From Burkholderiales bacterium (GTDB lineage Bacteria; Patescibacteriota; Minisyncoccia; Phycocordibacterales; UBA9973), in the NCBI GenBank assembly GCA_023701005.1, contig JAMPXW010000003.1:9148-73147 (forward strand): 64,000 nt of DNA, read 5' to 3'. The notes beneath the pieces were generated by a model. That model saw only the letters and a list, made by a program, of their open reading frames with translations, was not told where the DNA came from and did no database searches. Both the position numbers and the translations under genes were made by a program. Every line of letters starts with the position of its first letter. Position 1 is the stretch's first letter. Below, in pieces: positions 1,591-53,926 of the stretch.

Positions 1591-4500
1591 ATGGAAGATA
1601 AAGAAATCAAATTTATACACCTTCACACTCACAGCCATTATTCCCTATTGGACGGTCTTTCCAAGCTAAAAGACCTAATAGATTTAGCAAAAAAAGACAA
1701 AGCAGGAGCTCTAGCCATCACAGATCATGGCAATATGTATGGTGCTATAGAATTTTATAAATTAGCAAAAAAAGAAGGTATCAAACCCATCATAGGAGTA
1801 GAAGCATACATCACAGCAGGTTCTAGAAAAGATAGAAATGTGGAATCAAACGGAGGTAAAAGATATTATCATTTGACTTTGCTAGCAAAAAATCTACAAG
1901 GTTACAAAAATTTAATACGGCTAGTCACTCTTTCAAACCTAGAAGGTTATTATTACAAACCAAGAATGGATAGAGAAATATTGAGAGAATATAGTGAAGG
2001 TGTCATAGCTATGTCTGGATGTCTCGGTGGAGAATTGTCACAAAGTATAGTAAATAAAGATTTAGAGAAATCAGAAAAAATAATAAAAGAACATCAGGAA
2101 ATTTTTGGTAAAGAAAATTATTTTATAGAAATTCAATGTCACCCTACAGTAGAAAATGACAAATATGTGAGAGACACATTGATAAGCCTAGCTAGAAAAT
2201 TTGATATCAAAATAGTAGCTACTCAAGATTCTCATTATCCATGTATCGACGATCACGAAGCTCATCACACTTTACTTCAAATCAACACTCAAGGAGATAG
2301 CAAAGAAGCTTCCAAATTTGAATTTTCTGAAGACAATTTTTCTCTAATAAATACAGAAGAAGCTTTAAAAGTTTTTAAAGATATACCTGAGGCTGTCGCA
2401 AATACTCAAATAGTAGCCGATATGTGTAATCTAGAATTAGAACTCGGCAGCTGGGTATTCCCAGATTTTAAAATAGAAGAAGGCAAAACATATGATGAGA
2501 AATTACGCGAGCTTACTTATGAAGGCTTCAACAAGCTTGGCATAGAACAAACAAAAGAAACCATAGAAAGAGTAGAATATGAACTTCAAATTATTTTCAA
2601 AAAAGGGTATTCGCCTTATTTCTTAGTTGTGGGTGATTTATTAAAATATGCAAAAGAAAATGGTATTTTAACGACGATTAGAGGATCTGTCGCAGGCTCT
2701 ATGGTCACTTATCTCGTTGGTATTACAAATGTAAATCCTATTGAATACAAACTCCCCTTCGAAAGATTTTTAAATCCATTTAGACCATCAGCTCCCGATA
2801 TAGATATGGATTATGCCGACAACAGACGGGACGAAATGATAGAGTATGCAAAAAGAAAATATGGTGAAGACAAAGTAGCCCAAATAGGAACTTTCGGAAC
2901 GATGATGGCTCGTGGTGCTGTGCGTGATGTCGCTCGAGCTTTAGGATATCCATACAACACAGGAGACAGAATTTCCAAAATGATACCGATGAGTTCTCAA
3001 GGTATGCCAATGACGATAGATCATGCGATGGAAATAGTTCCTGAATTAAAAGCTGCTTATAAAAGTGAAAAAGATACGAAGAAAATAATTGACCTAGCAA
3101 AGAAATTAGAAGGATGCGTCAGGCACATCTCTGTACATGCTGCTGGTGTCGTCATCGCACCCAAGCCTCTATATGAATACGCACCTACACAATTTGACCC
3201 AAAGGGTGGAAAGATAATCACTCAATACGACATGTACAGTATCGAAGATGCTGGATTATTAAAATTTGATTTCTTGGGAATTAGAAACTTAGCAATATTG
3301 GGAGATGCAATAAGTTTAGTTAAAAGATTTTATAATATAGATATAAATATAGAACGCATACCCCTAGATGACAAAAAAACTTTCGCTTTATTGGCGAGTG
3401 GGCAGACAGAAGGACTTTTCCAATTAAACGGAGCAGGCATGACAAGATATCTAAAAGAATTAAAACCGACTTCAATACATGACATCAATGCCATGGTGGC
3501 ACTCTATCGCCCAGGACCAATGGAATCAATCCCAGAATATATAAAACGTAAACACAATAGAAATCTCGTAAAATATTTAGATCCCAGAATGAAGAAATTC
3601 TTAGGTGAATCTTACGGCCTGATAGTTTATCAAGACGATCTTCTCTTTTGTGCTATAGAACTCGCTGGTTATAACTGGGAAGAAGCAGACAAATTCCGTA
3701 AAGCTGTCGGTAAAAAAATTCCAAAAGAAATGGCTGCTCAGAGAGAAAAATTTACAAAAGGAATAATCACAAATGGACAAACTCCGGAATTTGCAGAGAA
3801 GCTCTGGAAACTTTTTGAACCATTCCAAGCTTACGGTTTCAACAAAGCTCATGCAGCTAGTTATGGGCGTGTAGCCTATCAGACAGCATATATGAAAGCA
3901 AATTATCCTGTCGAATACATGACAGCCATTCTCACCGCTGAATCAGGAGATGTAGAAAAAATATCTGAAATTATCGACGAATGTAAACATATGAATATCC
4001 CCGTCCTCCCTCCAAATATAAATGAAAGTTTTGGTGGATTCACTGTGGTTTTAAATCAAAATGAAAACAACATACCTACTCCAGAAGACACAGCCAAAAA
4101 CGGCAAAATAAGATTTGGATTATATACTATCAAAAATTTAGGCACCGATATTTCGGACGTGATAATAAAAGAAAGAAAAACAAATGGTAATTTCAAATCT
4201 ATAACAGACTTCTTGGACAGAATAAAACACAAAAACTTAAATAAAAAATCAATGGAGGCTTTAATCAAATCCGGAAGCATGGATGAGTGGGGCGACAGAG
4301 GCGTCTTTCTTTCCAACTTAGAAGATATGCTCGCTTACAATAAAGAACTAGGAGTAAAAAATGAAAATCAAGTCTCTCTTTTTGGTGGCTTACCAGAATC
4401 AGACATGAATACATTTAAATTAAAAGAAGCAGAAAAAGCGACACAAGCAGAAAAATTATTGTGGGAAAAAGAATTGTTGGGGCTTTATATCTCAGGACAT

Positions 4501-5605: not shown

Positions 5606-6196
5606 ATGGAAGAACAAAATATACCTACACCCACAAAAGGTGCAGAGAAATTCAATAAAAAATCATTTTGGGAGCTAGTTCGTTTTGCTTTGTTTGCCTT
5701 AGCTGTAGTTATACCTGTCCGTATATTTATAGCTCAACCCTTCATAGTATCAGGGTCTTCTATGTTCCCTACTTTTGAAGATGGTCAATATTTGATAATC
5801 GATGAGATATCATACAGATTAAATGACCCAGAAAGAAATGATGTGGTAGTTTTTAAATATCCAAATGATCAAAAAAAATATTTTATAAAAAGAATAATCG
5901 GTTTACCTAACGAGACGGTAGACATAAGAGGGAAAGAAATAATAATCACAAATGAGACACACCCTGAAGGTCTTGTCTTAGATCAAAGCTACATACAAAA
6001 TCCATCTATTGATGATATACATTTCCAATTAAAAGATGGGGAATATTTTGTAATGGGAGACAATCGTAATGCCAGTTCTGATTCCAGATTTTGGGGAGCT
6101 GTATCAAAAGATCTTCTAATAGGAAAAGCTTTCGTGCGATTATTTCCAATTACTAAAGTAGGTATATTGCCAGGTGATTATAAAAAAGTCGAATAA
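5606..6196 (+). CDS. lepB: signal peptidase I
   Basis: GSSMFPTF catalytic Ser region, GDNRNASSDSRFWG box. Confidence 0.88.
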   Translation: MEEQNIPTPTKGAEKFNKKSFWELVRFALFALAVVIPVRIFIAQPFIVSGSSMFPTFEDGQYLIIDEISYRLNDPERNDVVVFKYPNDQKKYFIKRIIGLPNETVDIRGKEIIITNETHPEGLVLDQSYIQNPSIDDIHFQLKDGEYFVMGDNRNASSDSRFWGAVSKDLLIGKAFVRLFPITKVGILPGDYKKVE

Positions 6197-22259: not shown

Positions 22260-23441
22260 ATGAATAATACAATTAAAATTAGAAAGGTTTCCTCGTTTAG
22301 AAAGGTTTTTAGTTCTCCTCAAGGAAAAAGCAAGAATATCTACATAGCTATTCTTAATATAAAAGATTTACCGAAAGAGCTTGATGGTTGGTTGGCAATA
22401 AACCCAAGAGAGTCTACCCCTGTTTCTGGTGTAGCAAAAAAAATACAAGCTTCATTAATCGAACAACCTGAAGCTTTTATATTCAAAAACAGAGGATTAA
22501 CGGTAATGACAAAAAAAGTTAATTTTGAAACTCAGACAAATATAATTTCTCTAGAAATGTCTGATCCAAAAATACATGGATTACTTGATGGTGGACATAC
22601 TTACAAAGTAATACAAAATGAACTAAGCAACACAATTGATGGGAGAAAAGATTTAGAAAACGCTTATGTTCGAGTTGAGTTTCTTGAAGGTTTTGATGAC
22701 TTAAATGAAGTTGTTGATATAGTAGACGCAAGAAATAGATCGGCCCAAGTAAAAGAACAAAGCTTAGAGGAATTAAGAAGTCACTTTGAGTCAATAAAAA
22801 GTGTTTTGAAAGACCGACCATATGCGGACCGAGTTGCATATAAAGAAATTGAATTATTAGAAGATGGATCTAAAAAAGATATTGATGTAAAAGAAATCTT
22901 ATCCTATCTAGTATGTTTCGACAATGAAGCATTCACTGACAACAAGCACCCAATAGTTGCCTATTCTGGAAAAGCTACTGCACTAAAACACTACATAGAA
23001 AACAGAGATAGAATGTCTAAATATACGATATTGCTACCTAAGATACTTGAACTAGTAGATAAAATTAAACAAGATATACCTAAATCTTATAATGCTCAAG
23101 GTGGCAGATGGGGCGGTTTACAAGGAGTTATAACTGAAAAAGAAAGTAAAAGAAAAACTGAGCTACCTTTTATAGGCGGTGAGTCAGAATACCAAACGCC
23201 ATCAGGTTTTATCTACCCAATCCTTGCTTCGTTTAGATCTGTGGTTCGAATTGAACGAAATAAGGTATCCTGGAAAATCGATCCTGTGGAATTATTTGAA
23301 AAAGTAAAACCCATGCTAGCCGAAGCAATTGGTGAACAAGCAATTGAATTTAGAAATCCAAACAAACTCGGTAAAGACGGAGCAACTTGGAGATTATGCT
23401 ACGCTCTTGTGGCACTCGAAGTAGCGAAGTTGGGTTATTAA
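22260..23441 (+). CDS. defense-associated ParB-fold protein, DGQHR/DndB-like (positional analogue of Abi genes beside Type I R-M)
   Basis: INPRESTPVSGVAKKI then LLDGGHTYK (DGQHR-like motif) ~residue 110; own terminator at 23455-23488; the family assignment is tentative. Confidence 0.35.
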   Translation: MNNTIKIRKVSSFRKVFSSPQGKSKNIYIAILNIKDLPKELDGWLAINPRESTPVSGVAKKIQASLIEQPEAFIFKNRGLTVMTKKVNFETQTNIISLEMSDPKIHGLLDGGHTYKVIQNELSNTIDGRKDLENAYVRVEFLEGFDDLNEVVDIVDARNRSAQVKEQSLEELRSHFESIKSVLKDRPYADRVAYKEIELLEDGSKKDIDVKEILSYLVCFDNEAFTDNKHPIVAYSGKATALKHYIENRDRMSKYTILLPKILELVDKIKQDIPKSYNAQGGRWGGLQGVITEKESKRKTELPFIGGESEYQTPSGFIYPILASFRSVVRIERNKVSWKIDPVELFEKVKPMLAEAIGEQAIEFRNPNKLGKDGATWRLCYALVALEVAKLGY

Positions 23442-23454
23442 AAAAAATATTTTT

Positions 23455-23488
23455 CAGCACCTAGATAAAATAGGTGCTGTTTTTTTTA
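23455..23488 (+). terminator. rho-independent terminator after 22260-23441
   Basis: cagcaccta-gataaaa-taggtgctg followed by T8. Confidence 0.65.
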
Positions 23489-23540
23489 AAAAAAACAAAG
23501 TATGAAAATCTTATAAAAAATGCTAAAATGAAAAGTATCT

Positions 23541-25853
23541 ATGTCTAAAGATCAAGATAATCCAAATCGTGTAATTACAGAACAAGATGCTCGCATCGTA
23601 ATAAACAGAAAACTCCAAGAAGCTGGATGGTCTTTAGAAGGTCCGGAAAAAAATGTATTGACCGAGCAACACTCAGATGCAGGATTTATGGACTATCTCC
23701 TCTTAGATCGAAATGGTAGAAACCTAGCCCTAGTTGAAGCAAAAAAGGATTCCATAGATCCATACACTGCAAAGAACCAAGCGCGAGGATACGCAGAAGC
23801 AAATAACTGCAGATATGTATTCCTAGCGAACTCTGAACAATTATATTTCTGGGACTTAGAAGATGGTGATGCTACTCCCATCGAAAGGTTTATATCTCCA
23901 CAAGACTTACAACGCAGACATGATCTCAAGCTGTCACGCAAACCATTATCTTCAATTCCTCACAATATGGAGATCTGTGACAGACCATATCAAGTTAGCG
24001 CGTCAGACACCATTGCAAAACAATTCGACGAAGGTAAAAGATCTTTCCTTCTTGAGATGGCCACAGGTACAGGCAAAACAAGATTGTCTGCAGGGATAAT
24101 AGACCGCTTCTTAAAAGCACATCAAGCTGAAAGAGTTTTGTTTATTGTGGACCGAATAGAACTAGCTAAACAAACACTAGATGCCTTTCAAATAGCATTC
24201 AAAGACAACTATAGAGCTGTACGTTATAAACCCGGCCAGCATGCAGTATTCGGTGGTGCAAATATCGTAGTAGCGACAATACAAAGCTTAAACATCCACT
24301 TCAAAAAAGACTTCACCCCGGGTTATTTTGACTTAGTTATCAACGATGAAGCACATCGATCCATATACGGCGAATTACCACGCCAAGTTGTTGAATACTT
24401 CCAAGCGGTGCGTATAGGACTAACTGCTACTCCAAACGACTTTTTGAAAAATATAGACATAGAAAAACTACAAGATAGTAATCCCCTTAAACTTGAATAC
24501 AGGTTTGCTCGTGATACATACAAACACTTCGGCTGTGATATGAGTACGCCAACATTTAGATACACCATCCAAGATGGAGTAAAGGATGGCTTCCTCGTTG
24601 CTCCACGTATTGCTCGTATGGTATCAGTAATCACCAAAGAAGCTGTTTCAGAAGATGGATGGAATATAGAAATAGATGGCGAAGACTATACCTATCGTAT
24701 TTCTCAGTTAGAAAAAAAGGTTCTCATCCCAAAAAGAAACGAATTGATTTGTTTTCAATTTTTACAAAATGCATTAAAAACACCAGATGGAGCTATTGGT
24801 AAATCTGTATTCTTTGCAGTATCACAAAACCACGCCGTGGCTCTCGCTCGAGAATTAAACAGACTAACTCCTGAACACAATGGTAAATTCGCGGAGGTTA
24901 TAACTTCTCGTGTGCAAGGAGCTTCTGACCTGGCTAAGCAATTCAGAAAAGATGAAAACTTCTATCCTCGTATAGCGGTGAGTGTGGACATGCTAACTAC
25001 GGGTTTTGATTGTCCTGAAATTCTAAACATAGTACTCGCTCGTCCGATTGCTTCACCAACCACATACATTCAGATCAAAGGACGTGGTACTAGAAAGTAT
25101 ACCTTCCCAGACGGCACACCCAAAAAAGAATTCTTGGTGCATGACTTCTGTGAAGTGGTGAAGTATTTTGAAGAAGAATATGACTTCGAAGCACCGTTAC
25201 CTGTGACTGGTACTGGTGGCGGTGGCACAACACCACCCCCACCTCCTCCACCACCTGAAGAAGTAAAAACCTACGAAGGCACTGATGAAATAGTACTAAC
25301 AGAAATGATTCAAGTCGGTCCTGAGGGTGAAAAAGTAGACCGTCTTGTTTATATAACAAAATGGGAAAAGACTATCAGACAAATTATCAACGAAAACCCA
25401 ATCCTAGCTAAACAAGTAGAAGAAGGTTCTGAAGAAGAAATATCAGAATTCTTGCGTACAAATGTCTTCGACAAACCGACAGAATACTTCAACGAGAGAA
25501 ACCTTTCCCGTGCATATAGAGTGTTTGGGGATTTGATTGATTTTGTGAAAGCAGGTCTTGGTATGCAAAAACTTCCGACCCGAGAAGAGCAATTACTCGA
25601 ATTGGTAGAAAGCATCAGAACTGATCACGACCTAAACCTAGAACAAGTAAGGTTGTTAAAGATACTTGTAAGGCAATTGAGCCAAAGCCCTAAGCTCTTG
25701 GCCAAGTTTGAGGCCGGAGATTACTCTTTCCTCGACGAATCGCCTTTCTCTCAGTTTGGTGGTACAAGAATGTATATAGCTGGCTTTGATTCGAAAATTA
25801 GAGTAGTGTTTGATACCGTACGCTCAAGTCCGGCGTTAACAATAGTTGAATAA
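23541..25853 (+). CDS. hsdR: Type I restriction enzyme R subunit (short form, with poly-Pro linker)
   Basis: HSDR_N nuclease-like N-terminus (DYLLLDRNG..LVEAKK), helicase motifs EMATGTGKT, DEAH, LTATP, QIKGRGTR; GGGGTTPPPPPPPP linker at ~25200-25260; noticeably higher GC than surroundings. Confidence 0.85.
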   Translation: MSKDQDNPNRVITEQDARIVINRKLQEAGWSLEGPEKNVLTEQHSDAGFMDYLLLDRNGRNLALVEAKKDSIDPYTAKNQARGYAEANNCRYVFLANSEQLYFWDLEDGDATPIERFISPQDLQRRHDLKLSRKPLSSIPHNMEICDRPYQVSASDTIAKQFDEGKRSFLLEMATGTGKTRLSAGIIDRFLKAHQAERVLFIVDRIELAKQTLDAFQIAFKDNYRAVRYKPGQHAVFGGANIVVATIQSLNIHFKKDFTPGYFDLVINDEAHRSIYGELPRQVVEYFQAVRIGLTATPNDFLKNIDIEKLQDSNPLKLEYRFARDTYKHFGCDMSTPTFRYTIQDGVKDGFLVAPRIARMVSVITKEAVSEDGWNIEIDGEDYTYRISQLEKKVLIPKRNELICFQFLQNALKTPDGAIGKSVFFAVSQNHAVALARELNRLTPEHNGKFAEVITSRVQGASDLAKQFRKDENFYPRIAVSVDMLTTGFDCPEILNIVLARPIASPTTYIQIKGRGTRKYTFPDGTPKKEFLVHDFCEVVKYFEEEYDFEAPLPVTGTGGGGTTPPPPPPPPEEVKTYEGTDEIVLTEMIQVGPEGEKVDRLVYITKWEKTIRQIINENPILAKQVEEGSEEEISEFLRTNVFDKPTEYFNERNLSRAYRVFGDLIDFVKAGLGMQKLPTREEQLLELVESIRTDHDLNLEQVRLLKILVRQLSQSPKLLAKFEAGDYSFLDESPFSQFGGTRMYIAGFDSKIRVVFDTVRSSPALTIVE

Positions 25854-25856
25854 AAA

Positions 25857-27335
25857 ATGAAATTACAATTTACAAATTCAGACATAAAACAAAAAGTAGA
25901 TCGCATCATGTATGAGCTGTTTGCTGGTGGAGTAAACAACCCAATGACAGCCATCGAACAGATCAGCTATTTGATGTTTCTAAAATCCTTAACTGAATTT
26001 GATGAGCAACAAGAAAGAATTTCTAATCTATCTGGTAAAAAATACGAGAGTGTATTCAATGGAAAAATCAGCAAGTTCAGTTGGCGTGTAATTAGTCGAC
26101 TTTCTGGTGATGAGCTATATAACACACTAGCAGAAGTATTCGAACATTTACACGAACTTCCAAAACTTACAGCCACAGGAAAAACCCTATTCCGCCAAGC
26201 TCACTTAAAGATATACAATCGCCCTACCCTAAAATCAGTAGTGAGTATTATAGATGGAATGGACTACAACAATGCTGAAAAATACGACACAGATGTCAAA
26301 GGAGATATGTATGAATATCTCTTAAACAGAATAGCTGTGGCCGGTACAAACGGACAATTCAGGACTCCACGTCACATCATCAAGGCTATGGTTGAATTAA
26401 GTAAACCAAAACCATCAGATCTAATACTGGACCCGGCTTGTGGTACTGCTGGATTTTTGATTGAAGCATACAAACACATACTCAAAGAAAATACTTCAAA
26501 AGAAGAATTAGCTGAAGGAAATGAAAATGGTGACGAACTATCACCTGCACAACATGAATTCCTAAAAACAAAAGCTATCAATGGTTTTGACAACGATGCA
26601 GACATGATTAAAGTAGCGGTAATGAATTTATACCTTCATGATTTAGCTCAATCAAATGTAATAAACTTCGATCCACTAACTCTTCCAGAAGAAAAGAAAA
26701 AGAAATACGATTTGATACTCGCAAACCCTCCTTTCGCTGGTAATATAAACCCTGAAGCAATCCAAGAAGACATTGGATTAAGTACTACAAAAACAGAATT
26801 ACTATTCTTGAAATACATGTATGACCATCTAGCTGATGGTGGTAGATGCGCAGTGATTGTGCCTGAAGGAATCTTATTCGGGTCTACAGGCGCTCACAAA
26901 AAAATGCGTGAACTAATGATGGACACATGCAAAATAGATGCAGTAATCAGTCTTCCCTCTGGAGTATTCAAACCATATGCGGGAGTAAAAACTGCGATAA
27001 TCTTGTACACGAAAGGTGGTAAAACTGACAAGGTCTGGTTTTATGAAGTAGTTGGTGATGGATTTACTCTTGATGATAAAAGAAACCCAGACCCAAAGAA
27101 TGACAACCTAAAGGATTTATTCAAGGCTTTCGAAAAGAAAGAAGCTGGCCCGTATAGTTGGATAGTAAAAAGAGATGAAATAGTAGCTGAAGAATACAAC
27201 CTCACAGCATCACGATACAAACCTGCAAGCACTGAAGTCATAAACCACCGAGACCCTAAAGAGATCATTACAGAGGTAATGAAACTTGAAAAAGAAATAG
27301 TCGAGGGTCTTGAAAATCTAAAGAAAAAGATATGA
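25857..27335 (+). CDS. hsdM: Type I R-M N6-adenine DNA methyltransferase subunit
   Basis: HsdM N-domain, AdoMet motif DPACGTAGF, catalytic NPPF. Confidence 0.9.
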   Translation: MKLQFTNSDIKQKVDRIMYELFAGGVNNPMTAIEQISYLMFLKSLTEFDEQQERISNLSGKKYESVFNGKISKFSWRVISRLSGDELYNTLAEVFEHLHELPKLTATGKTLFRQAHLKIYNRPTLKSVVSIIDGMDYNNAEKYDTDVKGDMYEYLLNRIAVAGTNGQFRTPRHIIKAMVELSKPKPSDLILDPACGTAGFLIEAYKHILKENTSKEELAEGNENGDELSPAQHEFLKTKAINGFDNDADMIKVAVMNLYLHDLAQSNVINFDPLTLPEEKKKKYDLILANPPFAGNINPEAIQEDIGLSTTKTELLFLKYMYDHLADGGRCAVIVPEGILFGSTGAHKKMRELMMDTCKIDAVISLPSGVFKPYAGVKTAIILYTKGGKTDKVWFYEVVGDGFTLDDKRNPDPKNDNLKDLFKAFEKKEAGPYSWIVKRDEIVAEEYNLTASRYKPASTEVINHRDPKEIITEVMKLEKEIVEGLENLKKKI

Positions 27336-28423
27336 CATGGGAAACGATACAATTCGACAAAATAATTACTTCATATGGTGTTGGTAAAAATGGTCTATCT
27401 AAAAAAGATTGGAGTGAAGATGACAAATATCCAGTAATAGGACAAGGCGCTGATTTCATAGAAGGTTGGACAAACAGAGAAGATTTGGTAATTAATCCTG
27501 ATTCTGAGGGTTTAGTTATTTATGGTGGACACACACGAAGAGCAAAATATATAACTACACCTTTTGTGCCCGGTCCTAATGTGAAAATACTAAAAACACC
27601 TCCTGAGATAAAACCTAGATTTTTATTCTACTTTCTTAATTCTGCAGAAATACCAAATAAAGGGTATGCGGATCACTTTCCTCTTGTAAAAAGAATTAAA
27701 GTACCTATACCTTCCATAAAAGAGCAAGAAAGAATTGTAGCTCTTCTTGAGCAAGCTGAGGAATTAAAAAACAAAAGAGCTGAGGCAGATCAAAAAATGG
27801 AAGAACTAGTCCCTGCATTATTTAATGATATGTTCGGGAATTTGTCACAATGGCCAAAAATCAAACTCAGAGATATAGCAATTGTTAAAATAGGCCCCTT
27901 TGGGACACAATTACATAAACATGATTACATAGAAAATGGCACCCCCATTGTTAACCCTACTCATATAGTTGAAGGTAAAATAATTGTAAATCAATCATTT
28001 ACTATCAGTGAAGAAAAGACCAAAGAAATTAATCAGTATATTATGCATACCGGAGATATCGTGCTAGCAAGAAGGGGTGAAATGGGAAGATCTGCGATAG
28101 TCTCTGAAAAAGAAGATGGCTACTTGTGCGGTACAGGTAGTTTGTTTATAACTCCAACTAACCAAATTAATCCATATTTTCTAAACACAATTTTTTCTTC
28201 AATTCAAATGAAAAAAACATTAGAGGAAAATGCTCGTGGCGTGACAATGAAAAACTTAAATATCAATATCGTTGAAAATATATGTATTTCAAACCCACCC
28301 ATAGAATTACAAAACCAATACGAGAGAACTATTAAAGAACTTATGTTCTTAAAACATAAACAAGAAGAATCGGTCAATAAATTAAAAGAACTATTTACGG
28401 CTATTCTAACAAAAAGCATATGA
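27332..28423 (+). CDS. hsdS: Type I R-M specificity subunit (two target-recognition domains)
   Basis: two TRD halves separated by conserved coiled region (EQERIVALLEQAEELK); start overlaps hsdM stop (ATGA). Confidence 0.85.
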   Translation: MTWETIQFDKIITSYGVGKNGLSKKDWSEDDKYPVIGQGADFIEGWTNREDLVINPDSEGLVIYGGHTRRAKYITTPFVPGPNVKILKTPPEIKPRFLFYFLNSAEIPNKGYADHFPLVKRIKVPIPSIKEQERIVALLEQAEELKNKRAEADQKMEELVPALFNDMFGNLSQWPKIKLRDIAIVKIGPFGTQLHKHDYIENGTPIVNPTHIVEGKIIVNQSFTISEEKTKEINQYIMHTGDIVLARRGEMGRSAIVSEKEDGYLCGTGSLFITPTNQINPYFLNTIFSSIQMKKTLEENARGVTMKNLNINIVENICISNPPIELQNQYERTIKELMFLKHKQEESVNKLKELFTAILTKSI

Positions 28424-30102
28424 CAAGACAGAAACCTATAAAAGAAATAATGCCGTGGAGCAAAGATGAGCTAGAAAAACTATTACTCAAAGTAATAGAC
28501 CTTGGTGTAGAGACAGCTAAAATTGATTTCAAGCTCGAAATTGAAACAAACACTCCTGAGCAAAAATCAGAACTATTAAAAGATATTTGTGCAATTTCAA
28601 ATACTTATGACCTAAATTATGATGATTATGGTTTTCTTATATATGGAGTAAAATCAAAATCTATTATTGGTATCTCTACAACGGAAGAAAATACTGACAA
28701 TTTTCAAAATCACATAGAGCAATTACTCAAAAACAACATCACTCCTACTCCACAAATACAGATTGTTTCTTTTGAAACCGAAGACAATAAAAAATGGGGT
28801 GTAATTGTTATACCACCAGACAACAATAAACCTCACATGTTCTTTAAGGATTTCTCTTGTCCAACAAATCCAAGCAAAAACAGAAAAAAGGGCGAATGGT
28901 TTGTAAGACATGGTTCTACTACCGACCCTGCTTCAGCAGAAGATCTCTCAATCATTAACCAAAAACAAATTGAAATAACCTTAGAGCCACTAAAAGAGAG
29001 TATTAAGAATTTACAAGCTCGTGTTCTAAAAACTGAAGAGCAGTACAACAGCGCCCTATTTAAGCTAATAGAAACTGCACTAAAAAATACTACTCAAAAT
29101 AGAAATGCGCCTGAAGTAGAAAAAACTGAAATTGCATCTGATATTGAAGAAGTAGTTTCAGTTGATTTGGCAAGTCGATTCAAAAGTAAATTACTTACAC
29201 CTAAAGATAAGTTATCCGAAGAACTTATCTCGGAGGCAATTAAAATAAGAGAATACATAGATGGAGCAAATACAGGGCTAACTTGGATACCTCAATTAAA
29301 TAATTCGGAAGACAATAAAAAGATCGTAGAAAACTTAGAAGAAAAGATAAAACCATTTATTGATTCTGTGGCCATGATCGTATTAAAGGACGAAAAAAAT
29401 ATCTATAAAGAATCACTAATAAAAGCTATAAAAATTCTTTGCAAATCAATAGATGCCCCAAGTGGCACTCAGTATAATAGAATAGGACAAGGTATTAGAT
29501 ACTATCCATTATACCTACTCTTATATGTGATTTTTATTTGCGGGGTGGTTTCAAATAAAGGATCGTTACTAAAAGATATACTGAATCTTCAAATAAAACA
29601 TCCACGAACTAAAAATACCTCACCTATTACAGATGTTTATTTCTTCGCCTATGAAGGAAAAGCTTTAGTAAACGATGCTTATAAACAAAGGTGGTGTGAG
29701 CCAATTGCGCAAAGAATACGACAATTTATAAGTGACAATATCGGTGAACATATTACAGAAATGTCTGAGGCGGAGTATTTTTTCAAAGGAGAATTTGTTC
29801 TATCACTAAGTAATATCAATAAGGCGATGAGTGATGGCGAACAAGTAGAACACAGAATTCCACTAGGTGGACTTTATCTACATTTATATGAATGCAACGA
29901 ACCAATAACCGATTTAATAACAGAATTACCCGATTGGCTAGATAAATTATATGATCATCCACTAAACGAAATTCTAGACATGTTTGATAAAAATGCAACA
30001 AAAATGTCTGGCCAGGGTTGTTTTGCAACAGGTACTCATGGTCTTAAAACCAGAGAATTATATGACCTCGCGTTAAGCTCTAGAGCTAAAAAGACTCGAT
30101 AA
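28420..30102 (+). CDS. AlbA_2/Schlafen-like (COG2865-type N-domain) protein with coiled-coil middle and uncharacterised 230-aa C-terminal domain
   Basis: N-term ETAKIDFK...ICAISNTYD..GFLIYGV...WFVRHGSTTDPASAEDL matches AlbA_2 signature (E..LEFK / AlANt.GG / yvRvGsst..A..ee); ATGA overlap with hsdS stop. Confidence 0.6.
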   Translation: MTRQKPIKEIMPWSKDELEKLLLKVIDLGVETAKIDFKLEIETNTPEQKSELLKDICAISNTYDLNYDDYGFLIYGVKSKSIIGISTTEENTDNFQNHIEQLLKNNITPTPQIQIVSFETEDNKKWGVIVIPPDNNKPHMFFKDFSCPTNPSKNRKKGEWFVRHGSTTDPASAEDLSIINQKQIEITLEPLKESIKNLQARVLKTEEQYNSALFKLIETALKNTTQNRNAPEVEKTEIASDIEEVVSVDLASRFKSKLLTPKDKLSEELISEAIKIREYIDGANTGLTWIPQLNNSEDNKKIVENLEEKIKPFIDSVAMIVLKDEKNIYKESLIKAIKILCKSIDAPSGTQYNRIGQGIRYYPLYLLLYVIFICGVVSNKGSLLKDILNLQIKHPRTKNTSPITDVYFFAYEGKALVNDAYKQRWCEPIAQRIRQFISDNIGEHITEMSEAEYFFKGEFVLSLSNINKAMSDGEQVEHRIPLGGLYLHLYECNEPITDLITELPDWLDKLYDHPLNEILDMFDKNATKMSGQGCFATGTHGLKTRELYDLALSSRAKKTR

Positions 30103-30342
30103 AAACCAAGGAAAATGGTAAAATGAATTTACCATAATTTATGGTGACAAAACCTAAACCAGAGCAATCTGGCATGGTTCAAATATCCCACGCGAATAGA
30201 AACGGCCACATAAGCCGACATTCATTCGCGTGGGTCCACAATCGAAAGGTTGTGGGATAGTTCCGAAAGGAGCTGTCGTCGTGTCTTGTGTGGCCATTTG
30301 TGTTAAACAAGCCGACTATTATCAACTAAAACCCACGCGAAA
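30103..30342 (+). other. GC-rich highly structured leader/ncRNA candidate with mutually exclusive pairings
   Basis: cccacgcgaa at 30187 and again at 30329 just before the ATG, complementary ttcgcgtggg at ~30231; hairpins atggtaaa/tttaccat/atggt, ccaga-gcaa-tctgg, cccacaa-tcgaaagg-ttgtggg. Confidence 0.45.
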
Positions 30343-31212
30343 ATGAAAACTAAATATAACAAAGGATTTATTCCTATCATAGCGATAGTGATACTTGGAA
30401 TGCTTGTTGTCGCCGGAGGCACAACGGCTTTGATAAGTAGTAAAAAAGAAAATGTAAATAAAATTGCACCCGAAGATAAGAGTGTCCTAAAAAACGAAGA
30501 GGTGTCTTCAAACAAAAACACAGAAGTAAAGACAGAAAAAACGAATATCTCTGAGACAGAAAAACAAGTAAAAATTGAAACAAAAACTCCTCTGGTAGAT
30601 ACAGAAGAAAATGTAAAAACAAAACTAGTAGATACAACAAAAGAACAACCGGCAGAGATACCACAGGAAGTAAAAACTGGACATCTAGGAATAAAATTGA
30701 TCAATGAATTTTTACAAATTCCTACCTTAGACAACCTGAAAGCATTCTGTACTAAAGCAAAAAACGTAGATGGTATATCAGAAAAGAAAGTAATGAATCA
30801 GGACAAAACTGCATATGTGATACAAAAAAATTCTCTCTATGATGAAGTAAAAATATGCAAAACAGCTCTAAATGAATACCAAGGAAGCGAATGGTATAAA
30901 TGGACTTCTTATAAAGAAGATTACTTAATCAAACTAGTAGACCCTAGTGAACCAGACAGCATTAGATCTAAAAAATTGGATTACAACGAAAAGATGTTGT
31001 TAATGAAAGAATATAATTTATTTGCATATGATCCCTCTTCTGCAAGATTTGAAGATGTATCCAACTATTTGAAACCAAACGTGGTGATGGAAAAGATAAT
31101 AGAAATTGATCAAAGCAAAAGAAATAGTATAACATCGAGGATGTATCTAAATTCATTTTTAATACCCGAGAAAGAAATGGTCAAACTCAAAGAAAGACTA
31201 ATAAAACAATAG
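30343..31212 (+). CDS. hypothetical secreted/membrane-anchored protein (N-terminal TM, Lys/Glu-rich linker)
   Basis: signal-anchor FIPIIAIVILGMLVVAGG then low-complexity region. Confidence 0.5.
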   Translation: MKTKYNKGFIPIIAIVILGMLVVAGGTTALISSKKENVNKIAPEDKSVLKNEEVSSNKNTEVKTEKTNISETEKQVKIETKTPLVDTEENVKTKLVDTTKEQPAEIPQEVKTGHLGIKLINEFLQIPTLDNLKAFCTKAKNVDGISEKKVMNQDKTAYVIQKNSLYDEVKICKTALNEYQGSEWYKWTSYKEDYLIKLVDPSEPDSIRSKKLDYNEKMLLMKEYNLFAYDPSSARFEDVSNYLKPNVVMEKIIEIDQSKRNSITSRMYLNSFLIPEKEMVKLKERLIKQ

Positions 31213-31261
31213 ACGCAATTGAAAAAACAAAGAATTCAAAAAATGTCTCAAAATAAACCCT

Positions 31262-31801
31262 TTATAAATAAGGTTGCAAGTCTCTGCAATTTGACCTATC
31301 CAAAAGATTACTAGGGAGACGTGTAGTTATCCAATCAGAATTAGAAAGTAGTAATAACTTCCAAACCCAAGCAGATTCAAAAAACAATCTGGTCCTATCC
31401 TTCCAAGATAATTCAGGGTTAGCATAACAACTAAAACCATCTTCATTTATAAATAAAGTATTATAGGAAGTTATAGCTTTGTATGCTTCTTCCATAAAAC
31501 AAGAAGACAACTTAATCCCTCCACGCTTCTCTAAATCCTTAGCTAAAGCTTCTAAAACAGCATTCAATCGTCCATCCTGTATCCATCTTTTATACCTTCT
31601 ATGACATGTTTGAAAAGACGGAAAACCCTCGCCTTTAGGTAAGCGCCTCCAAGAACCACCTAGCTGAATCACATACAAAATACTATTAAGCACATCTCTA
31701 TCAGAAGTTCTTTTTCTTCCTCTGGTTTCCAAAGAATTACGCTTAATAAGCGGTTCTACTAAAGCCCATTGTTTATCTGTTAACTTAAATGGCAAGATCA
31801 T
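31262..31801 (-). mobile_element. IS5-family (IS427/ISL2 group) transposase remnant, N-terminal DUF4096-type domain only
   Basis: LTDKQWALVEPLI..RGRKRTSDRDVLNSILYVIQLGGSWRRLP...YKRWIQDGRLN matches IS5-family N-terminus; DDE region degenerate/absent, 179 aa. Confidence 0.65.
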
Positions 31802-31838
31802 ATATTAATTATAAAATAAATTGATATAATTAAAATGT

Positions 31839-32525
31839 ATGGAAACTAAAGGCGATAAAAATGTGCTAGCGCACATAGCTGATGTGATATTAAAATCGAA
31901 AGTAAAAGACAATAATCAATACTCTGGAATCAAGTATGAGTCTCTTCCGTTTGCAAAAGAAGAAGCTAGAGAAGGACTCAAGGAATTAGCAAGAAACAAG
32001 TACATAGAAATAGAAAAAGATTATGATACATACTTACACGAAGAACCAATACACGACCCATTCCCTATAAATAACCACCCCTCAAAAACAATCTATACAA
32101 TACCGGCCGGAGCATTAGTAAAAATAAAGAATGAAAAAGAACTAAAAAAACTAGCTTCGACTAAATCATTTATAAATCCAAATATCAAAGATTTGAAAAA
32201 AGATGAGAGTACTGGAGATTTTTATTTGAAAGAAGATAAGTTAGAAATGGGACACGAAACCACACATTACACTCTCTTAGAGTTATTCTACGAAAAAGCT
32301 ACTGATGGAGTTATCACACAAGACTCCGCTCTAGAATTTTTTAATGAAAGAAAAATCAAAGTCGGTGGCAAAAAGATAACAAAAGAAAATATAAATAAAA
32401 CAATAAATAACTATACCGCTTCTCTACTAAGATTCGCAAAAATTAAAGGAAAAAGATTCACAAGCTCACCAATAAAAAAAGTGAAAAAAGGCAAATATGT
32501 AATCGGCTGGAAATTCTCTAAATAA
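31839..32525 (+). CDS. hypothetical protein, 228 aa
   Basis: ORF only. Confidence 0.45.
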   Translation: METKGDKNVLAHIADVILKSKVKDNNQYSGIKYESLPFAKEEAREGLKELARNKYIEIEKDYDTYLHEEPIHDPFPINNHPSKTIYTIPAGALVKIKNEKELKKLASTKSFINPNIKDLKKDESTGDFYLKEDKLEMGHETTHYTLLELFYEKATDGVITQDSALEFFNERKIKVGGKKITKENINKTINNYTASLLRFAKIKGKRFTSSPIKKVKKGKYVIGWKFSK

Positions 32526-32664
32526 TATAATACTTACATTTTACTTATGGATAACCTCAATTGAGGTTATTTTTACATTGCAAACAAAGACTATTTTCTA
32601 AATATAAGTAAAACTAATCAATTCTAAGCTAAAAAAGAAATTCATAGAATAAATATACACAACG

Positions 32665-32727
32665 CCAAGGCGATCAAAGTAGTTGTGTAAGTCCATCCCT
32701 TGATCCAATCGCCTTGGTCAAGGGATG
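32665..32727 (+). promoter_or_regulatory. leader with two mutually exclusive hairpins (attenuator-like)
   Basis: stem A ccaaggcgat/atcgccttgg; stem B catcccttgatc/ggtcaagggatg whose loop contains the 3' arm of A; B abuts start codon region of 32725-32949. Confidence 0.35.
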
Positions 32728-32949
32728 TATTTATTTATGAAGTTCAGCACAGAACAATTAAACAGACTAAGAACAATCATGGAAAAAGATTATGGGGTTC
32801 TTATGAATGACTCTCAGTTAGAAAAATTCGCATCATCTATAGTACGTTTAGCAAATGTATCTCTAAAAGCTTTGACTGAAGAGAACGACACAGAGTCGCT
32901 CCCTTCAGTGAGGGCTAATGTGTCCTCAATAGCAAATACCAGCACTTAA
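32725..32949 (+). CDS. hypothetical small protein (74 aa; alternative start 32737)
   Basis: ORF only. Confidence 0.35.
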   Translation: MYLFMKFSTEQLNRLRTIMEKDYGVLMNDSQLEKFASSIVRLANVSLKALTEENDTESLPSVRANVSSIANTST

Positions 32950-33326
32950 GTGCCTTTTCAAGCCCTGGGCGCACCTATGTGGGGCTTGTAAAAATAAAAT
33001 AGACATAGGATTGGTTTCGTGATCCCGCGATTAAGGGATGAGGGGTGTCACAAGGAAACCAAACCACTGATTGCGGTGTAGCTTAAAAGACCCTAACGCA
33101 ATCAAGTTCACCACCAGTACATTATTATGAGCTGTGTTGGATAGATGGGTCCAAGTAACCTCCGAGATAAAACGGAAAAAGGTACGGCGACCCCCTAAGG
33201 TTCTAAAACCGTGGGGGTTTGGGGGCTATTGGATTCGGGAAAGGTGTCTTTACTAGACTTCTTGAGAAAAATCCAATACCCTTGTGTTTGCATAAATTAT
33301 TAGAAATTAATAACAAAAAAAATAAA
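32950..33326 (+). other. GC-rich structured non-coding region upstream of serine recombinase (ncRNA or recombination-site candidate)
   Basis: hairpins caagccc...gggcttg, tggtttc...gaaacca, gattgcg...cgcaatc, attggatt...aatccaat; competing ccccc/ggggg segments; markedly GC-richer than genome. Confidence 0.4.
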
Positions 33327-35036
33327 ATGGAAAAAGAACAACAAAAATTAAACAAATACTTTATTTATTGCAGAAAGTCTACAGACAGCGAAGATAGACA
33401 AATACAATCATTATCAGATCAAATTAGGATATTACAAGAAATGGCAGAAAAGAAAGGTTTAATGATAGTAGAAACCTTACAAGAAGCTAAATCTGCTAAA
33501 GCACCCGGTAGGCCAGTATTCACGAAAATGATTGAGAGAATTAGTAAAGGTGAAGCCAATGGAATAATCACATGGAAATTAAATCGATTAGCGCGTAATC
33601 CTATAGATGGTGGAACTATCAGCTGGCTACTCCAACAAGGAGTGATTAAAGAAATCCTCACCCCGGAAAAAAGCCACTATCCAAATGATAATGCATTAAT
33701 CATGTCAGTAGAATTAGGTATCGCAAATCAATTCATTAGAGACTTAAGTAGTGATGCTAAGCGTGGTATAAAAACAAGAGCAACACAAAAAGGTTACCCA
33801 AATGGAGTTGCTCCTATAGGATACTTAAATGATCTTGTGAAAGCCAAAGGAGATCGTGGCTGGAAAGTAGACGAAGAAAGATTTCCAATAATAAAACAAA
33901 TACTAAAAATGTTTGCCACGGGTAAATACTCAGTGAGACAAATGACTAGTATTGCTAACGAAGAAATGGGATTGAGAACCTTTATAAGGAAAAAACAAGG
34001 TGGAAAGAAAATCGTTGTATCTTACATGGATGTGATATTAAAAAATCCAGTATATGCCGGCTTCTTCTTTCTCAATACAGATAATAGTAGGCATGAAGTA
34101 AACAAAGAAATTCCAAGAATGATCTCTGAAGAAACATATTGGAAAATACAAAAAATTCTTGGAAACAGAGGACGCCCTAGGCCTCACAAAAATATAAAAG
34201 CTTTCGCTTATACAGGTCTCACCAAATGCGGTGGCTGTGGTGGCTCTGTGACGGCTGAAGAAAAATACCAATTAATATGTTCCAGTTGTAAGCATAAATT
34301 CGCCTATGCAAGTAAAAACGAATGCCCCAAATGCAAAACAAAGATAAAAGACATGGAAGATCCTACTTACTTACACTATACCTACTATCACTGCACAAAA
34401 AAGAAAAGAGAACTAAAATGCAAAGAAAGATCAGTGGTGGATACAAAAATCGATGAGACGCTGGCAGACTACTATAAAAAAAACTTAAAAATATCAGCCG
34501 ACTTGTCTAAGTGGTGCATAGAAAATCTACGAGTAATTGAGAAAGAAGAAAAGCAAAATGATTACGAGATAAAAGCGTCTTTACAGAAAACCCTGACATC
34601 AAAAGAAAAAGAGCTTTCAGAACTAGCACTGATGCGCGCCAGAGGGCTTTTGGACGATGAAAGCTTCATTACAGCACAAAATACAATAAAGGAAGATATT
34701 AGCGCCCTTAAGCGAAAATTGAGCGAATTTGAGCATCTTGATCCAGAAAAAGCAGAAAGGATTTACCAAGCATTCGACCTATCGCAAGGCATAGACGAAA
34801 TTATCAGAAATGGCACGCCTGAAGAGAAAAAATCAGTATTATTGGAAATTGGTTCGAACCTAACTCTAAAAGACAAAACAATCAATGTTTATAACAGCGA
34901 ATTGTATTCTGCAATAATAAATGGACTACATTTAGCAAAGTCTGAAATTGAGTGGTTCGAACCTGAAAATTATCAAGCAGAACAAGAACAAAACGCCTCT
35001 TTCGAGGCGCTTCGTTCAACCATGCTCCGGGGGTAG
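33327..35036 (+). CDS. large serine recombinase (integrase type: resolvase catalytic domain + recombinase domain + zinc ribbon + coiled coil)
   Basis: YCRKSTDSEDRQ..SLSDQ catalytic Ser region, LNRLAR, CGGCGGS...CSSCKH...CPKCKT zinc ribbon; start set at MEKEQQ (ORF track start 33219 overlaps a conserved hairpin); stop overlaps tRNA-Asn 3' end. Confidence 0.8.
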   Translation: MEKEQQKLNKYFIYCRKSTDSEDRQIQSLSDQIRILQEMAEKKGLMIVETLQEAKSAKAPGRPVFTKMIERISKGEANGIITWKLNRLARNPIDGGTISWLLQQGVIKEILTPEKSHYPNDNALIMSVELGIANQFIRDLSSDAKRGIKTRATQKGYPNGVAPIGYLNDLVKAKGDRGWKVDEERFPIIKQILKMFATGKYSVRQMTSIANEEMGLRTFIRKKQGGKKIVVSYMDVILKNPVYAGFFFLNTDNSRHEVNKEIPRMISEETYWKIQKILGNRGRPRPHKNIKAFAYTGLTKCGGCGGSVTAEEKYQLICSSCKHKFAYASKNECPKCKTKIKDMEDPTYLHYTYYHCTKKKRELKCKERSVVDTKIDETLADYYKKNLKISADLSKWCIENLRVIEKEEKQNDYEIKASLQKTLTSKEKELSELALMRARGLLDDESFITAQNTIKEDISALKRKLSEFEHLDPEKAERIYQAFDLSQGIDEIIRNGTPEEKKSVLLEIGSNLTLKDKTINVYNSELYSAIINGLHLAKSEIEWFEPENYQAEQEQNASFEALRSTMLRG

Positions 35037-35062
35037 GGATCGAACCTACGACCAATCGCTTA

Positions 35063-35631
35063 CACTTTATCTCCTATTACTAGAAGTGTGGACTATATCA
35101 TCTCCATGTTCATAAAATTTATGAATTTAGAAGCAAGGCGCTTCGCGCTCTAACATAAATTAGAGAGCTACTCCATAAATGGATAGTCTCTACACCTTCC
35201 TCAATTTAAAATTGAGGCTTGGCTCGGGATTACCCCATAAGGGCTTCCCCGAATTCACCTTGTTTTTCAACCTAAGTTTTCTTAGGAAGCTGCGTAATAC
35301 CGTCATGTATTTCCATATGACAATTTGCACACAAGAGAACACATTTATCAATTTCTTTTTTGATACGTTCCCATGACCTAGTTAACCCCCTAGAAGAAAG
35401 ATCAAAATCTTTTTCTTTTGGATTTAAGTGATGAAAACTTAATGATCTCTGGCATTTATTATAGCCACACACAATACACTTACCGCCTTTATAGTCTCTA
35501 GCCATTTCACGAAGCTTTTTTCTTCTTCTTGTAACAGCCATTACCATATATTCTCTACGGTCGGCATATGTTCGTTTTTCTACTCGTTTCTTTTTGGTAT
35601 ACACAAGTAGATTATACCACAAACATCCGAC
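35063..35631 (-). mobile_element. group I intron within tRNA anticodon loop
   Basis: 5' exon ends in U, intron ends in G; P7 pairing agacta...tagtc and P8-like hairpin tccatttatgga downstream of ORF. Confidence 0.65.
35272..35622 (-). CDS. HNH homing endonuclease encoded in the tRNA intron
   Basis: CIVCGYNKCQRSLSFHHLNPKEKD...LLCANCHMEIH HNH motif; non-ATG (TTG) start in track. Confidence 0.7.
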   Translation of the reverse strand: MWYNLLVYTKKKRVEKRTYADRREYMVMAVTRRRKKLREMARDYKGGKCIVCGYNKCQRSLSFHHLNPKEKDFDLSSRGLTRSWERIKKEIDKCVLLCANCHMEIHDGITQLPKKT

Positions 35632-35832
35632 ACAGGCGACCGCTCTACCGCTGAGCTACCCCGGAATATTTTATTTTCAATTCTTCTTTTAAATACCATA
35701 ATTTCCACCAAACTATCTACCTATAAGTAGATAAGCCCCGGAATATTATTCAATTAAAAGAACTTTTTATATCTTAACAGAAAATAACTAAAAAACAAGA
35801 TGGCTTTTCGTTTTAGTGTATAATTAAATACA

Positions 35833-42104: not shown

Positions 42105-42435
42105 AAGTCTGGTAAGATAATACCGGTCCTGTATTGAATAGTTGCGCTCCGGCCTCGGCTGGAGTGAGGAAAGTCCGAACACATAGTCTCGGCTTAGGCC
42201 TTAGACAAGCGTAGTGGGTAACGCCCATCGGGAGCAATCCCAGAGTTGAGAACAGTGACGAACCGATTTAGTTCGGGTGAAACGGCAAAATACTTACGTG
42301 TGTGCAAGATCGTGTTCTGCGAAGCTTCATGCGAAGCAGAAAGAATCGCTTGAGCCCGAGCGTAAGCGAGGGCCTAGACAAATAACTATTGCCTTTATTG
42401 GTACAGAATTCGGCTTATAGATACAAGGCTCACAT
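42105..42435 (+). ncRNA. rnpB: RNase P RNA, bacterial type A
   Basis: GAGGAAAGUCCGAAC (P4 5' strand), GGGUAACGCC, GGGUGAAACGG, GCUUGAGCC, ACAGAAUUCGGCUUA (P4 3' strand) in canonical order; ends approximate (+/-20 nt). Confidence 0.85.
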
Positions 42436-53842: not shown

Positions 53843-53915
53843 GCCGCCTTAGCTCAGTTGGTAGAGCAACGCTTTTGTAAAGCGAAGGTCCTCAGTTCAA
53901 ATCTGAGAGGCGGCT
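53843..53915 (+). tRNA. tRNA-Thr(UGU)
   Basis: GCCGCCT acceptor/AGGCGGC, D-arm GCTC-AGTTGGTA-GAGC, anticodon loop TTTGTAA, T-loop TTCAAAT; parallels E. coli tRNA-Thr. Confidence 0.85.
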
Positions 53916-53926
53916 CAAAAACAATA

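Follow-up and report, generated by a model that had tools for sequence, protein, structure and literature searches.

Which tRNA is encoded on the minus strand at positions 35665..35025 of the 64,000-nt stretch of contig JAMPXW010000003.1 (assembly GCA_023701005.1) analyzed here, referred to as the window throughout, and what is the long interruption within its anticodon loop? A previous interpretation derived from the letters of the stretch (the sequence-only reading) had proposed a tRNA-Asn(GUU) gene split by a group I intron that carries the gene of an HNH homing endonuclease. This anatomy holds, as judged by the ARAGORN call on the spliced exons, the match of the intron to the Rfam model RF00028 (Intron_gpI) and the open reading frame (ORF) inside it. 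We consider it very probable that the locus is the tRNA-Asn(GUU) gene of a Patescibacteria-type (Candidate Phyla Radiation, CPR) bacterium, split between positions 35 and 36 by an IA-like group I ribozyme of 569 nt that has, in the loop of its P1 helix, an HNH homing-endonuclease gene.

Read along the minus strand from 35665 to 35025, the gene runs from TCCGGGGTAGCTCAGCGGTAGAGCGGTCGC-CTGT through 569 nt of intervening sequence to TAA-GCGATTGGTCGTAGGTTCGATCCCTACCCCCGGAG. The 5' exon (35632..35665) comprises positions 1-35 of the tRNA, that is the acceptor strand, the D arm, the 5' strand of the anticodon stem and C32 U33 G34 U35. The 3' exon (35025..35062) supplies U36 A37 A38, the 3' strand of the anticodon stem, the variable loop, the T arm, the other acceptor strand and the discriminator G at 35025, and CCA is not encoded. 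When joined, the two exons form a 72-nt cloverleaf with the anticodon loop CUGUUAA and a body characterized by U1-A72 plus G73, and ARAGORN reports this spliced sequence as tRNA-Asn(GUU). Exon joining thus confirmed the canonical cloverleaf, loop and discriminator that had been read from the sequence, together with a 569-nt intron (35631..35063) that follows a 5' exon ending in U and itself ends in G. Compared with E. coli, the spliced tRNA has no 11-nt word in common. In its default mode, ARAGORN reported no tRNA at the locus, and with introns allowed (-i) it returned the label Thr(tgt) i(33,569), which we discount because the isotype given once introns are allowed is the wrong one (see below). 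No other tRNA-Asn was detected within the 64-kb window. For comparison, the 80 best related loci were fetched through the HNH protein, and at the 77 whose junctions were compared the 5' exon ending in ...CTGT recurs. Just 3' of the tRNA end, a terminator-like hairpin followed by a T-run (34986..35017, minus strand) falls within the antisense of the C-terminal codons of a serine recombinase ORF.

The intron (35063..35631, minus strand, with the terminal omega-G at 35063) is recognized by RF00028 over the full model at 35359..35070 (minus strand) with 65.5 bits, above the gathering score of 50 (E 2e-14), and therefore passes the covariance-model check that had been suggested for it. The same model detects the intron in 17 of 20 related loci scanned, where scores reach about 100 bits. 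The 5' part of the Rfam alignment (P1/P2 of the model) falls on the coding sequence of the ORF and was rejected as spurious; comparing the window with its ORF-less relatives and with all 77 related introns revealed where the 3' strand of P1 and P2 truly lie. P1 comprises 7 bp, formed by the exon CUGU (35635-35632) plus the intron gug (35631-35629) on the 5' side and the internal guide sequence uacGCAG (35296-35290) on the 3' side, and a U35.G wobble marks the 5' splice site. Within the guide region, GCAGC is invariant in 69/69 aligned cores and lies directly 5' of P2 in 77/77 loci, and the pair involving the first intron nucleotide is a standard one in 72/77 loci, distributed over six types (GC 57, AU 8, CG 4, UA 1, UG 1 and GU 1).

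The helices P2 to P9 were defined on the window sequence, all on the minus strand, and then scored on a 69-sequence core alignment (MAFFT). P2 is a hairpin (CCUAAG/CUUAGG, 35271..35286) in which 6/6 pairs show compensatory changes and 95% of the alignment cells are paired. P3 (35261-35256 with 35140-35135; 92% paired, with compensatory changes) encloses P4 to P7.2 within 35135..35261: P4 (35252-47/35229-24; 100% paired, again with compensatory changes), P5 (35244-41/35236-33), P6 and P6a (35223-35194; P6 99% paired, with compensatory changes), the 5' strand of P7 and the hairpins P7.1 (UCCA/UGGA, 35183-80/35175-72) and P7.2 (GCUCUCUAA/UUAGAGCGC, 35168-60/35153-45), the latter two being 75-89% paired among relatives with compensatory changes present. 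The P7-type pairing noticed earlier (agacta/tagtc) is indeed there, as GACUA (35188-35184) with UAGUC (35095-35091), and is invariant in 69 relatives. P8 (35133-30/35105-02, with an inner stem at 35125-21/35113-09) is 94% paired with compensatory changes and forms, together with J8/7 and the 3' strand of P7, the region 35091..35133; it is followed by the P9 hairpin (CUUCUA/UAGGAG, 35071..35086), in which 85% of cells are paired and 5/6 pairs are compensatory. Over the core as a whole, 86.4% of cells are paired, as compared with 35-48% after a shift of the 3' partners by 1-3 columns, 49/64 pairs show changes on both sides and 0/500 shuffles attain the observed values. For the variable hairpins P5, P6a, P7.2 and P8a, the pair counts (54-80%) are underestimates, because MAFFT does not align them by structure. 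The core from P3 to P9, with its P3/P7 pseudoknot, is thus supported by strong covariation. Extra hairpins between P7 and the 3' strand of P3, termed P7.1 and P7.2, are a hallmark of subgroup IA. Their presence marks the window intron as IA-like, in line with the classification of such introns by Nakagawa et al. (bioRxiv 10.1101/2025.07.03.662931; mSystems 2026, PMC13011429), who assign the Patescibacteria tRNA-Asn introns to IA and describe bacterial tRNA introns as mostly IC.

The P1 loop (L1) holds the HNH ORF (35272..35604, minus strand). A 116-aa frame with an HNH motif had been read here, and the ORF from TTG at 35622 (35622..35272) does exist and contains CxxC...HH...CANCH, but GTG at 35604 is the likely start, giving 110 aa: this is the length of the closest database proteins, and the ORFs of the close relatives L001 and L002 share the same GTG start. 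Gene callers seem to begin the gene at an internal ATG instead, yielding 89-91 aa. The 40-kb Logan contig L081 (SRR23907158), on which the window's YceI-like protein recurs unchanged together with its neighbouring genes, illustrates this gene-caller truncation: the HNH gene is annotated there with an internal ATG as its start and a length of 89 aa. At its other end, the ORF overlaps the ribozyme. Its stop codon (TAG, 35274-35272) sits inside the 3' strand of P2, and its 3'-terminal codons, GGT ATT ACG CAG CTT CCT AAG AAA ACT TAG, double as the 3' strand of P1 and as P2, the guide sequence lying within ACG CAG (T Q). Because the last codons also encode guide sequence and P2, the peptide "ITQLP" (ACG CAG CUU CC) is nearly invariant in intronic HNH copies, whereas nine free-standing copies have unrelated C-termini.

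As to the protein itself, HNH families of the PHROG collection match it at E 9e-30 to 1e-26, and several close homologues carry a precomputed Pfam HNH (PF01844) hit. The reading frame is uninterrupted and 92-94% identical to its closest database relatives. In a 23-sequence alignment, C49xxC52, H64 H65, C98-A-N-C101-H102 and H106 are invariant, and the protein, with a mean column identity of 61%, begins with a basic, helix-like segment. NCBIfam gave no match, an exact lookup of the 110-aa sequence found no identical record, and a search of the PDB with an HNH profile returned weak hits only, the best being the En domain of a group II intron maturase (E 0.005); the HNH endonuclease I-HmuI was not matched. 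Most likely, the HNH protein acts as a homing endonuclease, as the sequence-only reading had proposed.

The start of the HNH gene has a second conserved feature. An extended -10-like box of perfect sequence, TGGTATAAT (35619-35611), begins 12 nt into the intron and ends 6 nt upstream of the GTG start. Its UGGUAUA (35619-35613) is the 5' arm of a hairpin (35595..35619, minus strand) at the beginning of L1 with a folding energy of -10.1 kcal/mol (z -2.4), and the GUG (35604-35602) abuts the 3' arm UAUACCA (35601-35595). The motif TGNTAYAMT is present in 34/48 parsed loci, with near variants in others, and free-standing HNH copies retain the box. The sequences of the hairpin arms differ by lineage, for example CUGAUAC/GUGUCAG and UUUUUCAUGU/ACAUGAAAGA, and in 51/54 loci the start codon is wholly or partly paired in the minimum-energy fold. 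These data suggest that an intron-internal promoter would give rise to a leaderless or near-leaderless HNH mRNA, while in the full pre-tRNA transcript the -10 box would supply the 5' arm of a hairpin that occludes the region around the start codon and might thereby keep ribosomes off the folding ribozyme. A precedent is the td intron of phage T4, where a late promoter lies inside the intron and the start region of I-TevI is sequestered by a hairpin in read-through transcripts. As in that system, the promoter would reside in the 5' arm and the 3' arm over the translation start, so that only internally initiated transcripts would be translatable. Unlike there, the device at our locus is predicted from sequence conservation, little or no leader would precede the coding part of the mRNA, and the ORF is situated in the loop of P1 rather than in P6.

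The relatives place this locus within a large family. At E <= 1e-3, the HNH protein has 946 database homologues, mostly from Patescibacteria, and when each species was represented by a single genome, at least 589 of the genomes scanned encoded a relative. The HNH gene lies inside a split tRNA-Asn in 68/80 loci; with the same split tRNA around it so often, the arrangement is not a chance one. In 9/80 loci (L006, L015, L047, L070, L020, L037, L069, L036 and L039; with HNH at about 3001-3340 in some), the gene is instead found directly outside a tRNA-Asn whose 35/36 intron is ORF-less and 192-331 nt long. These free-standing copies are 40-110 nt from the tRNA gene, four of them upstream on the same strand and five divergent, and in L006 a degenerate copy of the 5' exon precedes the HNH gene. 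Three or four of the 80 loci are interrupted by contig ends. The combination of a free-standing HNH gene with a neighbouring ORF-less intron resembles "collaborative homing" or an intermediate in the invasion of an intron by an endonuclease gene. Reportedly, collaborative homing involves a free-standing homing endonuclease beside an ORF-less intron, as for F-CphI and psbA of cyanophage S-PM2, and is said to form part of a pathway for the origin of mobile introns put forward by Bonocora and Shub. The nine loci share with that case an HNH gene just outside the intron-bearing gene, and the likeness is one of gene arrangement; the window copy differs in having the gene inside the intron.

The loci closest to the window come from Candidatus Nomurabacteria and Patescibacteria metagenome-assembled genomes (HNH identity 90-93%). 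The guanine-plus-cytosine (GC) content of the window ranges from 28 to 40%. Elsewhere in the window, at 42126-42433 (plus strand), there is a bacterial class A RNase P RNA of 308 nt with several shortened helices (109.9 against a gathering score of 100), and its shortness is consistent with a reduced, CPR-type genome. Five of the related loci (L049, L055, L066, L076 and L060) comprise HNH-bearing tRNA-Asn 35/36 introns on contigs labelled Acidobacteriota or Pyrinomonadaceae (one Heliobacteriaceae). The carriers labelled Acidobacteriota or Pyrinomonadaceae have a distinct tRNA-Asn body and some a high flanking GC content; in L055, GC amounts to 70% in the flanks and 56% in the intron, and L076 adjoins guaA. 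Introns with a GC content below that of their flanks on such contigs suggest horizontal spread beyond Patescibacteria, as far as their composition and labels may tell.

Together, these features allow us to propose how the element might work. The guide uacGCAG would reach over a loop of 338 nt to CUGU|gug, the two forming P1 with its U35.G wobble, exogenous guanosine would attack after U35, omega-G would then take the P7 site, and exon ligation would release the 72-nt tRNA with the loop CUGUUAA. The HNH protein, expressed from its own promoter, would cut or nick intron-less tRNA-Asn alleles, and repair would copy the intron in.

The choice of the splice junction determines the identity of the tRNA, and the ambiguity that the sequence-only reading had seen in a repeated "gt" is real in so far as ARAGORN, too, arrives at Thr once introns are allowed. 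When the six possible 7-nt loop assemblies are enumerated and judged by U(-1) and omega-G, only two junctions satisfy both in the window, CUGU|UAA (Asn GUU; intron 35631..35063) and CU|UGUAA (Thr UGU; intron 35633..35065), so that the window by itself would also admit a tRNA-Thr(UGU) gene with an intron at 33/34. The relatives, however, discriminate between the two. In 77/77 related loci, the 5' exon ends in ...CUGT and a G precedes TAA and the anticodon stem, whereas the two bases ahead of this terminal G vary (AT, GT, AC, GC and GA). A Thr junction would therefore often let the intron end in A (e.g. ...AAAATG|TAA) or else yield the anticodons UGU, CGU and AGU on one and the same tRNA body; the Asn junction is the only one at which U(-1) and omega-G are preserved and the anticodon stays the same throughout. 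Within P1, the partner of U33 is the A of GCAG, which leaves the Thr junction without a wobble, while the U.G wobble falls on U35, the Asn junction. Besides, the window has a separate, ordinary tRNA-Thr(UGU) at 53843-53916 that begins with GCCGCC and has G1-C72, as opposed to the U1-A72/G73 body of the split gene, whose acceptor is not of the Thr type. Finally, the sequenced splicing product of a homologue corresponds to excision at 35/36, and the identical miscall is documented (PMC13011429). We thus see next to no chance that the host gene is a tRNA-Thr(UGU), and the ambiguity resolves to tRNA-Asn(GUU), whose intron separates positions 35 and 36.

Several points nevertheless weigh against the proposed interpretation of an active, endonuclease-bearing intron. 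P1 has to form across 338 nt. That the window copy splices is what its anatomy would predict, the RNA data themselves being those of a homologue that splices in vitro (PMC13011429). A two-hexamer scan did not detect the predicted internal promoter, which it missed because there is no -35 match, and the case for this promoter is the conserved -10-like motif. The HNH protein scores 19.4 bits with PF01844, below the cut-off of 21.4, is small (110 aa), has no obvious separate DNA-binding domain that would account for a site specificity, and the endonuclease role would be assigned to its family by sequence. In addition, only 64 kb of the genome are visible. An intron-less tRNA-Asn could hence lie elsewhere and do the work, with the window copy being a decaying pseudogene whose intron no longer splices, a scenario to which the moderate RF00028 score (compared with the roughly 100 bits of relatives) might also point. 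On the other hand, every core helix is intact and every family-invariant position kept, the exons give a perfect cloverleaf, the HNH frame is open and closely similar to its nearest relatives, a terminator-like hairpin follows the gene and the window contains no other tRNA-Asn; moreover, intron-bearing and intron-less copies of one anticodon seldom coexist in a genome (PMC13011429). Taken together, this makes a pseudogene very improbable. Somewhat different is the idea, compatible with our explanation at the RNA level, that the HNH protein has taken on another role, for instance as a maturase-like folding aid or in a host function, either in place of homing or alongside it. Its strong conservation, with many invariant residues and a presence in hundreds of species genomes, resembles long-term purifying selection rather than the cycle of gain, decay and loss that is usual for homing endonuclease genes, and it is a small protein with a basic N-terminal segment whose best, if weak, match among solved structures comes from a group II intron maturase/reverse transcriptase, namely its HNH-like En domain. 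Yet, neither the catalytic HNH residues nor the two CxxC pairs vary, pointing to retained nuclease chemistry, the family also includes introns that have no ORF, at least one homologous intron needs no protein for self-splicing in vitro, and both the free-standing copies beside the target gene and the lower-GC elements on contigs labelled Acidobacteriota fit a mobile nuclease. We therefore regard such another role as unlikely.

Group I introns with homing endonuclease genes are known from other settings. The tRNA-fMet gene of Synechocystis PCC 6803 has a group I intron that encodes I-Ssp6803I, an enzyme of the PD-(D/E)XK family; like our locus, this is a bacterial tRNA interrupted in the anticodon loop by an endonuclease-bearing intron, yet tRNA and insertion site (fMet, 33/34), endonuclease family and phylum (Cyanobacteriota) differ. 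The DNA polymerase introns of phages SPO1 and SP82 encode the HNH endonucleases I-HmuI and I-HmuII and hence share the enzyme family with the window intron, but their host is a protein-coding phage gene and I-HmuI is larger, with extra DNA-binding modules. Much closer are the introns of Patescibacteria. New classes of tRNA group I introns were mapped with tFind by Williams (2020, bioRxiv 10.1101/2020.01.27.920355), to whom Nakagawa et al. (PMC13011429) attribute the class "Asn.4Ug". In their survey of 95 complete Patescibacteria genomes, the latter authors found group I introns at 35/36 in 15 tRNA-Asn(GUU) and three tRNA-Asp(GUC) genes, documented that ARAGORN and tFind miscall such genes as Thr(UGU) 33/34, and demonstrated precise in vitro self-splicing at 35/36 for a homologous tRNA-Asn intron (GCA_016700035.1), with the product sequenced and an omega-G to C control. 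As tRNA-Asn(GUU) at 35/36 was the commonest intron-bearing tRNA (15/22), the view in the sequence-only reading that an intron-containing tRNA-Asn is unusual is out of date. Four of the Asn introns carry HNH (PF01844) genes, and among the introns tabulated in Table S3 of that article is one whose HNH gene belongs to the window's family (GCA_016699425.1). The authors concluded that endonuclease-bearing tRNA introns are rare, adding that draft genomes might reveal more. They also reported that a genome rarely has both an intron-bearing and an intron-less copy for a given anticodon. The window locus agrees with these introns in host tRNA, site, U(-1)/omega-G junction, IA core with P7.1, the Thr miscall by ARAGORN and, for some, the presence of an HNH (PF01844) gene; it differs in nothing essential and represents another member.

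Since this kind of element is already published, with the arrangement described and shown to splice in Patescibacteria, the novelty is low: the window locus is a correct call, not a discovery. The article makes no mention of the position of the ORF in P1, its overlap with the guide sequence, an internal promoter or hairpin, or free-standing copies. Possible additions to the published picture are an HNH-bearing form far wider than the four reported cases, the free-standing HNH genes beside ORF-less introns, the nucleotides shared by protein C-terminus and guide, the conserved hairpin and -10 box at the start codon, and the occurrence outside Patescibacteria. We consider these details, from the P1-loop ORF and the hairpin to the free-standing copies and the spread, as modest extensions.

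The surroundings of the gene are described here for completeness. A large serine recombinase of 605 aa (33219..35036, plus strand), which matches the Pfam families Resolvase and Recombinase and a PHROG integrase (E 1e-60), converges on the tRNA-Asn gene, its last 12 nt overlapping the 3' end of the tRNA. Such a convergent arrangement is found in at least 14/80 related loci (e.g. L008, L021, L063 and L020) and not in the closest relatives L001 and L002. Upstream of the recombinase (22260-33000), the plus strand encodes AIPR, a type I restriction-modification system (hsdR/M/S), a Schlafen/AlbA_2 protein and a LOOT RNA (RF03000; 30151-30277; 71.3 bits against a gathering score of 46.4) between the Schlafen-like gene and an ORF without Pfam match, and the minus strand has a transposase fragment. 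Recombinase, AIPR, type I restriction-modification and Schlafen/AlbA_2 genes, together with the transposase fragment, look like a mobile defence island bordered by tRNA-Asn. The tRNA 3' end, looked for as an att repeat of such an island, was not found a second time within the window.

On the other side of the gene, the 12-nt direct repeat AATATTCCGGGG (minus strand; 35736-35747 and 35659-35670), which takes in 7 nt from the start of the tRNA and the 5 nt ahead of them, flanks an insertion of 77 bp that lies between a conserved promoter-like box (TTCTGTTAAGATA...AAGTTCT) and the tRNA. This insertion is missing from L001, L002 and L003, and partial duplicates of the tRNA 5' end (10-24 nt) are present 30-180 nt upstream in 11/77 loci. 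The insert of 65 nt ahead of the tRNA occurs only once within the window and thus gives no sign of being a repeated element. In one related locus, L010, a c-di-GMP-II riboswitch (6067-6150, plus strand; 58.9 vs 53.5 bits) is located ~2.5 kb downstream of the tRNA-Asn gene.

For annotation, the present case means that the only detectable tRNA-Asn of the window is either missed (ARAGORN default) or mislabelled as a second tRNA-Thr. Such miscalls distort the tRNA complements and completeness estimates of CPR genomes, a point already made in the literature. It is of interest, albeit not new, that in a minimal genome an essential, probably single-copy tRNA would depend on a ribozyme. Beyond the single locus, it is possible, though we advance this tentatively, that the intron family preserves, across hundreds of CPR genomes, a staged series in which HNH gene and ribozyme merge into a single mobile element. 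One stage might be represented by the HNH genes that stand free next to an ORF-less tRNA-Asn intron, in either orientation and in one case with a degenerate 5'-exon copy; another by the lodging of the gene in the P1 loop, with its C-terminus recruited to encode guide sequence and P2; and a further one by the promoter-in-hairpin device, which would separate nuclease expression from ribozyme folding. If this were true, HNH-bearing tRNA-Asn introns, found as they are in hundreds of species genomes and on Acidobacteriota-labelled contigs, would be common and mobile, rather than rare and immobile, the conclusion reached on complete genomes alone.

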